Source: an uncultured Clostridia bacterium
Lineage (GTDB): Bacteria > Bacillota > Clostridia > UMGS1810
Direction of reading: 5' to 3'
Length of the DNA: 64,000 bases
Assembly: GCA_934463115.1 (NCBI GenBank)
Contig: CAKSIN010000010.1
Span: 3,239 to 67,238 of the forward strand
A program made the translations under genes and the position numbers. This document shows positions 22,092 to 59,418 of this stretch, piece by piece. Position 1 is the stretch's first letter; every line of letters begins with the position of its first letter. The notes below the pieces were generated by a model. It was not told the origin of the DNA, did no database searches, and saw only the letters and a list, made by a program, of their open reading frames with translations.

Positions 22092-22964
22092 GTGAACAAG
22101 CAGGGATATGTGTACAAATCAATGGAAAAATACAGGCGAAAATTTGCTCTGATATGCGGAGTAATATTTGTACTTTGGGTGTTGTTTACGGTTGCAAAAT
22201 GGCCGTATATACGCACGAAAATGTTTGGTGCAGTTGCACTTGACGAATCGGAGTATTTGTCTGAAACGGGAACAAAAACGCTGACCGAACCGCTTGTGCT
22301 GGATCGTCATGAGACAAAAGAACCGACGTCGATATATTCCAAACAGAACAGCTATTGGCAGGACGGCAGGTATCTCTTTAATATGAACATAAGCAATATT
22401 AAAGAAACTGATGTTGAGTTTACCTCAATTCTTGAGGTTTCGTCATCTCAAAAGCTGGAGTACCCCACTGCCGTAATCTATACTGCCGATCTTGCCGGGA
22501 AAACCACTGTAATAATAGCTGAGCCGGAGCAAAAATTATCCGACAATATTCAAGGTTACCTTGTGGAACCGCAAAGAGCGGTTTTGTCCCGTCTGTCGGA
22601 AAATATGAAAGACGGCGACAAGCTTGTCCTGGCAGATTGGTTTATTGACTGCCGTAAGATTGATATGGGGCTTGATTCCACGGATTTGCATATTTCGTTT
22701 TTGATGCTGATGGTTCTGATTCTTTTGCTTATTCGTCTGGCACAGGAATATATCAATCCGCTCAGCACACCGACGTACCGGCAGCTTTCACGCTACGGCA
22801 ACATAACCGATATAGCCGCCGAAGTCGACAGAGAGGTAGAATCCGCAGACGCATACACAGAGGACGGAAAGTTTATATGCGAAAACTTTATCATTGAAAA
22901 TGATACTTTCAAAAAGAAAATTACGCGTAATCATATGGTAAGTGATGAAAAACGACATTCATAG
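22092..22964 (+). CDS. Hypothetical membrane protein (two predicted TM segments)
   Basis: GTG 22092 follows AAAGGAG. Hydrophobic segments are FALICGVIFVLWVLFTVA and ISFLMLMVLILLLIRLA. No recognisable family. Its TAG stop is completed by the first base of the adjacent repeat element. Confidence 0.5.
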   Translation: MNKQGYVYKSMEKYRRKFALICGVIFVLWVLFTVAKWPYIRTKMFGAVALDESEYLSETGTKTLTEPLVLDRHETKEPTSIYSKQNSYWQDGRYLFNMNISNIKETDVEFTSILEVSSSQKLEYPTAVIYTADLAGKTTVIIAEPEQKLSDNIQGYLVEPQRAVLSRLSENMKDGDKLVLADWFIDCRKIDMGLDSTDLHISFLMLMVLILLLIRLAQEYINPLSTPTYRQLSRYGNITDIAAEVDREVESADAYTEDGKFICENFIIENDTFKKKITRNHMVSDEKRHS

Positions 22965-23235
22965 CCGAAGGAGAGTAACCCGAACCCGCCTGAAAAGGCA
23001 TAATTTCGGCATCTTTTGGCTTGTCATCTTCGCAAGGCGACAGCCTTGCTTCATCTTCCGCACCAAAATCTGTTCAAAATTCTATCCTTTTCAGGTCAAA
23101 GAATTTTGAGAGAACGGATTTTTGGTTGCGCAAGGCAAAAACGCAGGTAATCCTTTGTGGATTACCGAGTATTTTAACACAGCGAAAGCGGAAATCCGTC
23201 TCTCAAAATCGGAGTTCGGATTATTCTCTTTTGGC
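22964..23235. repeat. Structured repeat element, copy 1 (272 bp, TA flanks, 24-bp terminal inverted repeats)
   Basis: The termini 22962-22985 and 23214-23237 pair over 24 positions (20 Watson-Crick, 3 G:T, 1 mismatch). Internal helices are 22989-22998/23086-23095, 23014-23019/23063-23068, hairpin 23032-23049, 23103-23121/23192-23209 and hairpin 23146-23166. Homologous in reverse orientation to 57472-57746. Confidence 0.75.
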
Positions 23236-23237
23236 TA

Positions 23238-23260
23238 GGCATGTGGGAGTCGAACCCGAT
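23238..23260. repeat. Solo terminus of a further copy of the same element
   Basis: GGCATGTGGGAGTCGAACCCGAT matches the reverse complement of the copy-2 right terminus (GGCATGCAGGAGTCGAACCC) at 19/20 positions. It starts directly after the TA that flanks copy 1. Confidence 0.6.
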
Positions 23261-23307
23261 ACAGCGGTAAAGAAACGGTAAAAAAATAAAAATTTTGAAA
23301 AAAACGC

Positions 23308-47859: not shown

Positions 47860-47936
47860 GCGCCTATAGCTCAGCAGGATAGAGCGAACGCCTCCTAAGC
47901 GTTAGGCCGGTGGTTCGAATCCACTTAGGCGCGCCA
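47860..47936 (+). tRNA. tRNA-Arg (anticodon CCU)
   Basis: Cloverleaf with acceptor GCGCCTA/TAGGCGC, anticodon loop CTCCTAA, T-loop TTCGAAT and an encoded CCA. Confidence 0.9.
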
Positions 47937-47945
47937 TCACTTTTT

Positions 47946-48021
47946 CGGGGTGTAGCGCAGTTGGTAGCGCACCAGACTGGGGGTCTGGGGGCCGTGGGTT
48001 CAAGTCCCGTCACTCCGACCA
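47946..48021 (+). tRNA. tRNA-Pro (anticodon GGG)
   Basis: Acceptor CGGGGTG/CACTCCG, anticodon stem CCAGA/TCTGG with loop CTGGGGG, T-loop TTCAAGT and an encoded CCA. Confidence 0.9.
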
Positions 48022-57398: not shown

Positions 57399-57433
57399 GA
57401 TTGTCTTAAATAAATATGTCAATCAATAAATGA

Positions 57434-57470
57434 CGGCGGCAAAATAAATCATATTTTGCCGCCGCTGTTT
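57434..57470 (+). terminator. Terminator-like hairpin after the maturase gene
   Basis: 12-bp stem CGGCGGCAAAAT/ATTTTGCCGCCG with a 7-nt loop, followed by CTGTTT. Confidence 0.6.
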
Positions 57471-57471
57471 A

Positions 57472-57746
57472 GGCATGCGGGATTCGAATCCGGATGTGGT
57501 TTAAAAATGGAAATTTCGCATAATACTGCAGAAAAATCTGCGAATATACGGACTGTATTATTCTTAAATTTTCTTTGTCTTATTTCAAAATTTCCTATTT
57601 TTAAACTCTGCGACCTTACGTTTAGAAAAATTTATTGGATTTTCAATGCGGAGGACGCAGACAGGCTGTCGCCTTTCAAGGACGACAAATTGAAAAGACT
57701 TCAATTTTTCAAACGTAAGGCATATTGGGTTCGACTCCTGCATGCC
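57472..57746. repeat. Structured repeat element, copy 2 (275 bp, TA flanks, 22-bp terminal inverted repeats), inverted relative to copy 1
   Basis: The termini TAGGCATGCGGGATTCGAATCC (57470-57491) and GGGTTCGACTCCTGCATGCCTA (57727-57748) pair at 19/22 positions. Internal helices are 57614-57623/57711-57720, 57640-57647/57689-57696, hairpin 57660-57677 and 57499-57517/57588-57606. Confidence 0.75.
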
Positions 57747-57750
57747 TACG

Positions 57751-59418
57751 TTATTTATCATTTATTACGCCGAGTCCCGCGCATGAGATGATATCTTTTC
57801 CGAAATCGCCCTGCATAAGTTTTACAAATTCTTCTGTTTTCGGATTCGGTTCGTCGCGTATCACTGCATAATAATTTGTGGTGTATGGGTATTTTCCGCT
57901 GCCGATGCTTTCGTCACTCGGTGCAATACCGTCTATGGAGAGGAGTTTCAAATCTACATCGCCGAGCACCTGCGGCACTGTCTGATAGTAATAGTACAGG
58001 CTGTAACCGATTGCCTTGGAGTCGGTGTGCGTTGCGTCGTATGATTCAACATCGGTCAGAATGCTCGCCATTATATACGATGTTCTTTCCTTTGAAATTT
58101 CATCGCTTATTGATTTTCCGTCCAAGATGAATTTTTCCATTTGCGCATGGCTTCCGCTGTCGTTGTTTCTGCAATATGCGGCAAGCGCCACATCATCACC
58201 GCCAAGCTCTTTCCAGTTTTTAATGCCGTTTTCGGTGTATATTTTTTGTATCTGTTCGGTTGTAATGTTATTAACCTTGTTGTCCTTTCCGACAAAGAAT
58301 ACAAGCGCCTCGTTGGCTATCGGGATAAATTTCAGTTTTACATTCTTTTCATCGGCATATTTTGTAATTTCTTCGCTCGGATCGGGGACAAATATAACGT
58401 CGGCTTTTCCGTCAATCAGATTTTTGTACGAATTTGAAGTTTTCGAATGTGCCTTTGGCATAGTTTCAAGGTTGTGAGCATTTTTGTAATACACATCATA
58501 GATATTCTGTGTGATTGCATAGGTTGAGGTTGAGCCGTCGAGCCGCGGAATATCAACATTCGGAGCGTCGGAGCGCAGTATTGCCGGAGCATTATTTGCA
58601 AAGAAATCGCGTATTATGTAATACATATACGTTGCACATTCGTCTCTCGTAAGTCCGTTTTGCGGTGCAAAGCAATAGTATTCTATAAATTCCTCGCCGG
58701 TATCTTCGGAATCCTCGTAATCCTCTATGAGCATATACCCGTTGGCTTTCATAGCCGCGTAGGATTCTTTTGCATAATCGGACACAAGGTCGCTGTCCGT
58801 ATAGTGTTCAAAATCAAATGCGCCCTCGTTTTTTATATATCCCATATCGCTAAGCATGCGGCACATCATGGATATAAACTGTTCGCGCGTCACAGCGTTA
58901 TTCGGGTTAAACAAACGGTCTTTTTTAAACACACCGCGTTCGCAAAGTGCGTTTACATATGGGGTAAACCAACTGTCTGACGGCGTATCTTCGAAATATG
59001 TCACTCCGTCTTTAGGCTCAACCGAAAAGAGTCTTGAAAACACGGCTGCCGCTTCGGCGCGTGTCAACACCCGATTGGGGGCAAATGTTCCGTCACCGTT
59101 TCCGACCATTATTTTTCTGGCGCTCATTTCTGCGGCAAACATGCCTTCGTATTCCGGGATGTCGGTAAAATCTGTTGTTGTAACCTTAAGCGGGATGATT
59201 TTTTCCGTATTCGGCGCATAGGCATAGACCTCGCCGTCATACAGCGTGCCGGAAAAAGGAATTATCTCGCCTGTCAGCGAATCACTTGCAACCGTACAGA
59301 TGTTGCCGCTGTAGTCGTTGTCATCGTCCGTATCGCAGTATAAGACATCCGATGACGCAAATGCATTTGCCGAAATGCTAAGCAGTATCGCGGCAGTTAA
59401 AATGGTTTTTTTGAACAT
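57751..59418 (-). CDS. Secreted SLH-domain protein with a C-terminal PstS-like periplasmic-binding domain
   Basis: Start at ATG 59418 behind GGAGGG. Signal peptide (MFKKTILTAAILLSISANAFA), two SLH repeats (FTDIP..., FEDTP...) and a PBP type-2 C-terminal half. Confidence 0.75.
   Translation of the reverse strand: MFKKTILTAAILLSISANAFASSDVLYCDTDDDNDYSGNICTVASDSLTGEIIPFSGTLYDGEVYAYAPNTEKIIPLKVTTTDFTDIPEYEGMFAAEMSARKIMVGNGDGTFAPNRVLTRAEAAAVFSRLFSVEPKDGVTYFEDTPSDSWFTPYVNALCERGVFKKDRLFNPNNAVTREQFISMMCRMLSDMGYIKNEGAFDFEHYTDSDLVSDYAKESYAAMKANGYMLIEDYEDSEDTGEEFIEYYCFAPQNGLTRDECATYMYYIIRDFFANNAPAILRSDAPNVDIPRLDGSTSTYAITQNIYDVYYKNAHNLETMPKAHSKTSNSYKNLIDGKADVIFVPDPSEEITKYADEKNVKLKFIPIANEALVFFVGKDNKVNNITTEQIQKIYTENGIKNWKELGGDDVALAAYCRNNDSGSHAQMEKFILDGKSISDEISKERTSYIMASILTDVESYDATHTDSKAIGYSLYYYYQTVPQVLGDVDLKLLSIDGIAPSDESIGSGKYPYTTNYYAVIRDEPNPKTEEFVKLMQGDFGKDIISCAGLGVINDK

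Follow-up and report, generated by a model that had tools for sequence, protein, structure and literature searches.

We have found that the intergenic DNA at positions 57470-57748 of the window, by which we mean the whole 64,000-nucleotide stretch analysed here, is a 279-bp element with sharp ends, flanked by TA on either side and placed between two convergent genes. At one side it ends 2 nt short of the stop codon of the minus-strand gene (TAA at 57751-57753, closing a 575-aa ORF), just as the first-pass annotation had stated, and at the other it follows the terminator hairpin of a SCIFF maturase gene; the adjacency reported earlier stands, and the gap, given then as 4 nt, is 4-5 nt, with the stem ending at 57464-57465. 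The hairpin is also scored as a minus-strand terminator, and it is thus a common terminator for both convergent genes. Our analysis shows that the element was inserted into a TA between this common terminator and the minus-strand stop codon, and because it separates the 575-aa gene from its own terminator it is now part of the 3' untranslated region of that gene. We find no coding capacity in the element, whose copies and subfamilies differ from one another by single-base indels. The sole ORF at the locus (57456-57791) extends past the element into the opposite-strand neighbour gene, and the earlier view that it is not a gene is borne out, since it spans a non-coding repeat with indels of this kind between copies. 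Promoter and terminator scans within the element gave nothing above chance.

Table 1. Positions in the window of the element, its parts and the related features discussed in the text
Feature	Position	Strand	Basis
Family-A copy, ~277-bp element including flanking TAs (57470-57471, 57747-57748)	57470..57748	(-)	9 full genome copies at 94-96% identity; family HMM match positions 1-275
Right-end terminal inverted repeat (element orientation); likeness to tRNA T-arm and acceptor 3' strand	57472..57491		19/22 match with other end; GGGTTCGAGTCCCGCATGCC at same end in other copies
Left-end terminal inverted repeat (element orientation)	57727..57746		
Domain 1: helices P2, P2a and P3 around the conserved core	57613..57721	(-)	Covariation in 30 sequences
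Conserved core: hairpin GAAAGGC-GACA-GCCTGTC between direct repeats (T)CGTCCT	57647..57688	(-)	Best-conserved part of the superfamily
Domain 2: long imperfect hairpin	57499..57606	(-)	Absent from natural deletion derivatives
Bidirectional terminator hairpin between convergent genes	57433..57465		
"Copy 1", a family-B element, TA / GCCGAAGGAGAGTAACCCGAAC ... GTTCGGATTATTCTCTTTTGGC / TA	22962..23237	(+)	6 full copies 97-100% identical, all TA-flanked
Solo family-A terminus (TAGGCATGTGGGAGTCGAACCCGATA) abutting the family-B copy, TA in common	23236..23261	(+)	

Read forward, the element runs TA-GGCATGCGGGATTCGAATCC ... GGGTTCGACTCCTGCATGCC-TA; its orientation is fixed by an asymmetric interior, and the minus-strand reading starts TAGGCATGCAGGAGTCGAACCC. 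The first-pass annotation had described the 22-nt ends as inverted repeats and had noted a perfect palindrome in the left terminus, and both features are present: TAGGCATGCGGGATTCGAATCC (57470-57491) and GGGTTCGACTCCTGCATGCCTA (57727-57748), once the latter is reverse-complemented, have 19 of 22 positions in common, and the palindrome GGATTCGAATCC occupies 57480-57491. In most other copies the repeats agree at 21 of 22 positions, and from one subfamily to another both ends change in concert. A palindrome able to form a hairpin lies within each terminus, and the tRNA-like appearance of the termini, real as far as the sequence goes, may reflect this. A tRNA gene was considered as their source, and none of the 33 host tRNAs matches within 5 mismatches.

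The element had been described as the inverted second copy of another one in the window, copy 1, with which its reverse complement was said to align end to end. The two are indeed collinear (family HMM positions 3-275), but their identity is 47% (132 of 280 columns), and a BLAST search between them returns a 42-nt core alone. They belong to sister families, which we call A and B, and are not two copies of one element. The host assembly is an 88%-complete metagenome bin of 2.48 Mb in 62 contigs, several of which end by breaking within a family-A repeat. Besides its full copies, family A is represented by terminal fragments and by one copy with an internal deletion; the full copies of family B have the ends TA-GCCGAAAGAGAGTAACCCGAAC ... 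GTTCGGATTATTCTCTTTCGGC-TA. Full copies of both families occur in unrelated contexts, and a TA is found on both flanks of 13 of the 15 (7/9 for family A and 6/6 for family B). The two family-A copies that lack it are a single duplicated locus (C18:34708-34984 and C2:6428-6704), in which ~40 nt of near-identical flank accompanies the element on each side and the end reads ...CCT-C, not ...CCTA; here the duplication seems to have covered a larger segment with the element inside it. The difference in copy identity (95% for family A against 99% for family B), together with the finding that family-A sites are filled in other samples, fits a greater age for family A. We also confirm that the element at copy 1 supplies the G of the upstream TAG stop codon; since the flank that follows copy 1 also starts with G, the TAG stop predates the insertion. 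This insertion is found in every other sample of the same species whose contig reaches the site.

The target has a loose palindromic T-TA-A preference. We note that five of the six family-B copies abut a family-A terminus (TA then GGCATG) and have the TA in common with it, the copy at 22962-23237 being among them, which suggests that family B prefers a family-A end, or a TA beside a hairpin, as its target. Of the 15 host copies, 9 have a stable hairpin (<= -8 kcal/mol in 40 nt) directly after the right-end TA and 1 has one at the left end; these right-side hairpins are a terminator, a REP or the end of another element. A general right-end preference for hairpins was rejected, as it fell short of significance in a set of 40 sites drawn from many genomes (Wilcoxon P = 0.13). 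A REP or half-REP immediately adjoins two of the family-A copies (C9:86966-87242 and C23:11781-12057).

Several nested, shortened or composite forms accompany the full-length copies and add to the evidence for mobility. The family-A copy with an internal deletion is without positions 80-198 (G000:C14:16895-17054), a 47-bp mini-A consists of the two termini only (C46:4736-4783), and a 159-bp chimera joins a family-B left end to a family-A left end (C3:103786-103944), while 62-bp mini-B elements occur in metagenome contigs L269 and L274. A further derivative of ~190 bp, found in two genomes of the same genus (L294:1478-1670 and L297:1465-1636, in G299 and G115), comprises both tips and domain 1, with a short hairpin instead of domain 2, and in both genomes it is found at one and the same place, just before the start of a gene.

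We present evidence that these elements are mobile and that their target is TA. A family-B copy lies between ctsR and mcsA (G000:C29:9194-9469), directly upstream of the mcsA ribosome-binding site GGAGG, at a site that is ~20 nt long and free of the element in each of the other four species of this genus. Metagenome contigs L239 and L240 carry the empty site, ...TTGTTTGTT-TA-GGAGGAATG... (GTTTGTT-TA-GGAGG), and contig L238 and the host genome carry the filled one, ...TTGTTTGTT-TA-(272 bp)-TA-GGAGGAATG...; the filled and empty contigs encode an identical McsA protein. Mobility and the TA target are thereby directly demonstrated for family B, and since this family is polymorphic between strains, the same contigs show that it is active within the species today. 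The first-pass annotation had offered insertion into TA as one of two readings; the single-TA empty site of the sister family, and the nature of the element as a dispersed multicopy repeat with TA flanks, uphold it. For family A, duplication of the TA is supported by the TA flanks and by the architecture common to both families. By sequence alone, a TA that the element carries with it looks the same as a duplicated one. At the window locus itself, one contig from other samples of the species is filled and the other ends 14 nt past the maturase stop codon, and three other family-A copies are, in other samples, either filled or on contigs broken within the element. Among related species, the minus-strand gene does not lie beside the SCIFF maturase in genomes of the same genus or at any of 80 maturase loci from other species, and the 575-aa protein has no exact counterpart on record. 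We note that presence/absence polymorphism and insertion at unrelated sites together imply that individual insertions are dispensable.

The interior of the element is highly structured. The folding energy of 57470-57748 as RNA is -92.5 kcal/mol (z = -10.1), and the other strand, folded as single-stranded DNA, reaches z = -9.2; in neither case was any of 200 shuffled sequences as stable. The two strands fold about equally well, and counts of G-U against A-C pairs favour neither clearly. The internal helices listed in the first-pass annotation are for the most part complementary and present in thermodynamic folds (57614-57623/57711-57720 with its extension 57625-57632/57703-57710, 57640-57647/57689-57696 with the hairpin 57660-57677, and 57499-57517/57588-57606), the exception being 57530-57536/57556-57562, which is not complementary; in its stead ATAATAC (57520-57526) pairs with GTATTAT (57555-57561), and a small hairpin forms at about 57527-57541. 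The anatomy is one of three parts, comprising a terminal stem in which the inverted repeats pair, domain 1 with the core, and domain 2, which is a long hairpin. Natural derivatives without domain 2 retain domain 1.

The internal helices are real and are maintained by compensatory change. In an alignment of 30 diverse members, whose interior consensus structure contains 59 pairs, 94.3% of paired cells are complementary, compared with 29-48% when partners are slid by 1-3 columns, and compensatory double changes are found in 300 cells, compared with 43-67 for slid partners; none of 500 shuffles attains the observed values of pairing and compensation. Helices 1-3 of domain 1 are 94-97% paired, with changes on both sides in 13 of 20 pairs, and helix 6, in domain 2, has 25 pairs, with compensatory changes in 21 of them. 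Conservation is greatest in the core (mean pairwise identity between subfamilies 0.79) and at the junction GGTCGAAGAGTTT (also 0.79), lower in the helices (0.62-0.65) and lowest in the terminal 22 nt (0.47-0.50), where both sides change together. Across subfamilies the core hairpin has the consensus yGMAAGGC-GNCA-GCCTKnC with the direct repeat TCGTCCT on both sides, and it is the sole part of the element that BLAST detects in distant genomes.

This core leads to a much larger set of relatives. Of 61 related genomes, 26 give BLAST matches, most of them to many copies, and a profile HMM reveals that core-only BLAST matches are full-length members of ~275 bp with different termini, some of them in other GTDB families. 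A covariance model built from the left domain was run on 399 genomes sampled evenly across the class and finds members in 78 of them, in 45 of 216 genera and in at least 15 families, the count per genome being capped at 9; among the best class-wide loci, 26 of 33 HMM matches are full length. Rfam 15 has no family that matches within the element, the best match in the region scoring 20.6 bits against a gathering score of 211, and a match to the tmRNA T-loop at the terminus (57728-57738) scoring 6.6 bits. The sole Rfam matches above threshold in the window are the adjacent tRNA genes Arg(CCT) and Pro(GGG) at 47860-48018. The superfamily is widespread in gut and rumen Clostridia, is absent from Rfam 15 and is apparently uncatalogued. 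We consider it very probable that the element at 57470-57748 is a non-autonomous, non-coding miniature inverted-repeat transposable element (MITE) belonging to this large superfamily of ~275-bp elements. It would nevertheless be an unusual MITE, in that its core is more conserved than its tips, no transposase or autonomous partner has been found for it, and ~80% of copies have one orientation.

Orientation was scored relative to local GC skew (±10 kb), which is a proxy for the direction of replication. In 14 of 15 full host copies the strand reading TAGGCATGCRGGAGTCGAACCC... is the C-rich one, and in the host and 15 other genomes together the count is 33 to 8, with 12 ambiguous, copies within a genome not being fully independent. 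By the same measure, the GTAG-tagged REPs of the host, which probably move as single strands and serve here as a control, are biased 21 to 2 toward the G-rich strand. In co-directional gene contexts the element is antisense in 16 cases and sense in 2, so selection by transcription is a possible cause of the bias; the count remains 19 to 4 among copies that lie between convergent or divergent genes or at the edge of a contig, contexts in which no bias is expected from transcription. Surveys of Firmicutes found no orientation bias for IS630 (P = 0.565) and a replication-linked bias for IS200/IS605, IS607, IS110 and several DDE families (PMC3971601). Because IS630 is unbiased and some DDE families are biased, the orientation of the element argues against an IS630-type origin and is no proof of single-strand transposition.

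The element encodes no enzyme of its own and must therefore be moved by one that works in trans. Symmetric inverted repeats, TA duplication and a loosely palindromic target are classic traits of DDE cut-and-paste transposition, and the element might accordingly be a MITE of the IS630/Tc1-mariner type, moved at TA by double-strand cut-and-paste with a DDE transposase supplied in trans, its fold being selected on read-through transcripts. We regard this as doubtful. The TA duplication with its exact empty site, the symmetric inverted repeats of 22-35 bp, the loose T-TA-A target and the frequent location of copies within transcription units would all fit, yet the DDE_3 domain (PF13358) is above cut-off in none of 61 genomes (the host and 60 relatives, several of them near-complete), where there is one sub-threshold hit in a relative, compared with 5 of 14 control genomes. 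Nor was any autonomous or otherwise longer element with these termini found in the host genome, its relatives, metagenome contigs, viral contigs, or plasmid and phage collections; in the host genome no pair of termini encloses a transposase, and 15 metagenome contigs with the exact family-B terminus hold MITEs or 62-bp mini-derivatives alone. The tips, moreover, are the least conserved part of the element, its orientation is biased where that of Firmicutes IS630 is not, and family B is active at present and polymorphic between strains, each of which counts against a DDE transposase of this type. As the host is represented by an 88%-complete bin, a transposase on an unbinned plasmid, a phage or a collapsed repeat is possible. 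Other candidates were rejected. Family-A termini 6-9 kb apart do not delimit a composite transposon, the intervening DNA being housekeeping genes; metagenome termini without the MITE interior, considered as autonomous elements, are 62-bp deletion derivatives or truncated loci; and a transposase of the IS427/IS5 type (PF13586) is in G005 alone and has unrelated ends.

It is also conceivable, though we judge it unlikely, that the element resembles REPINs or PATEs and moves as single-stranded DNA through an HUH transposase of the Y1 type, either the RAYT-like gene of the lineage or an unrecognised enzyme, with the terminal hairpins and the TCGTCCT-flanked core hairpin serving as recognition and cleavage signals. 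The orientation bias has the same sense and a similar strength as that of RAYT-associated REPs (33:8 and 21:2), the fold is kept on both strands, a hairpin-forming palindrome is present at each terminus, and the core resembles a CGTC-tagged hairpin (PMC3733652). Y1 domains are found in 39 of 61 genomes, and by hand count weak-class Y1 genes are in 13 of 26 genomes with the element compared with 5 of 35 without it. The host has a RAYT-like ORF (G000:C30:13807-14163, minus strand), but this gene and its G024 orthologue are associated with, and flanked by, their own GTAG-tagged REP, GTAGGGAACGACCTGTGTGTCGTTCC, instead of the element. Physical linkage is absent as well: with the family HMM, none of 30 Y1 loci has an element within 1.5 kb, which led us to reject the Y1 transposases as a linked enzyme, and the high-copy genomes G022, G031, G015 and G036 have no Y1 match. 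In the Y1 systems known so far, duplication and long terminal inverted repeats are both absent; the termini of the element begin TAGG, TAAG or TAGC and carry no GTAG tag. PATEs derived from IS200/IS605 have subterminal hairpins, neither terminal inverted repeats nor a duplication, and a fixed target of 4-5 nt at one side only; the element has hairpins at both ends together with long inverted repeats and TA at either side. We note that the host RAYT-like ORF looks truncated at its N terminus (118 aa compared with 175 aa), and that a copy of the REP lies inside the RAYT-like coding sequence in two genera (G000:C30; L182:1459-1986), where it translates as ERH(A/T)GRSL.

The other reading offered in the first-pass annotation was a role as an RNA module in a 3'-UTR or between genes. 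That the element serves mainly as a structured RNA with a function of its own, for instance as a 3'-UTR stabiliser, processing site or tRNA-like module, and is repeated only incidentally seems to us very improbable and is needed to explain nothing that we see, since its strong covarying fold, the likeness of its termini to a tRNA acceptor and T-arm, and the sense-oriented position of the window copy and copy 1 directly after stop codons are set against the lack of an Rfam match, an orientation to neighbouring genes that is mixed and in co-directional contexts mostly antisense, the equal folding of both strands, insertion sites in unrelated genes, and a strain polymorphism which shows that the host needs no element at a given site.

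We favour instead the reading of the element as a MITE whose structure serves the element itself. Because individual insertions are dispensable, the long-term conservation of fold and core points to selection on the element's own propagation, and it is there that selection for the fold would act. In our view a folded single strand, most likely of DNA at the replication fork, is involved in transposition; alternatively, the conservation could serve a protein that reads the core during transposition. What is recognised would then be the core sequence and the paired state of the ends, not the sequence of the tips. Among possible movers, we allot a DDE partner a minor share of the probability, single-strand transposition by a Y1/HUH enzyme a smaller one, and the remainder to an enzyme that is unrecognised. 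A mechanism that is new for TA-duplicating elements, combining recognition through the core and end pairing, strand-specific insertion at the fork, and an enzyme that is host-encoded or an unrecognised one of non-DDE type, is a possibility that we put forward tentatively, and in this full form it is a rather unlikely one. Were it true, the superfamily would bridge REPIN-like single-strand elements and classical MITEs.

The superfamily is of practical as well as mechanistic interest. The repeat breaks metagenome assemblies, many contigs ending inside it, and it yields spurious ORFs such as that at 57456-57791, so a model of the family would better the annotation of gut Clostridia. Insertions that are flush with stop codons and ribosome-binding sites, and polymorphic between strains, could plausibly give rise to regulatory differences within a species; the insertion between ctsR and mcsA, for example, might change how the class III heat-shock operon is expressed. 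For orphan MITEs, Correia and ERIC among them, the identity of the mover is a long-standing question in the field, and an active family that has no recognisable transposase and combines a covarying fold, a contrast between tip and core, and a replication-linked orientation bias is a good system in which to find such a mover.

Several known systems invite comparison. RUP and other IS630-related MITEs are likewise non-coding, multicopy, intergenic elements of Firmicutes with terminal inverted repeats and a TA duplication. RUP is ~107 bp long and is attributed to IS630-Spn1, whereas the present element is ~277 bp long, has no IS630-type transposase in 61 genomes, is more conserved in its interior than at its ends, and is biased in orientation. 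The bcr1-type repeats of the Bacillus cereus group are mobile, MITE-like elements of ~150 bp whose predicted secondary structure is kept by compensatory changes and whose target duplication is TTTAT; compared by description alone, the present element differs from them in target duplication, size, sequence and host range. Correia/NEMIS of Neisseria and ERIC/IRU of enterobacteria also have a TA target and no identified transposase, are co-transcribed with adjacent genes and form long RNA hairpins (PMC2229807). These, however, are simple hairpins of 100-160 bp built from two arms, while the present element has an asymmetric fold of three parts, with a conserved core outside the arm pairing. The REPINs and TIR repeats of the RAYT/TIRYT tyrosine transposases are hairpin-forming inverted doublets, probably moved as single strands, that show a replication strand bias and rely on a single-copy, host-like enzyme, not on an insertion sequence (PMC3733652). 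The present element differs from REPINs in that it has no GTAG tag and does not flank a Y1 gene, and in that it has a TA on both sides and a structured interior of 220 bp.
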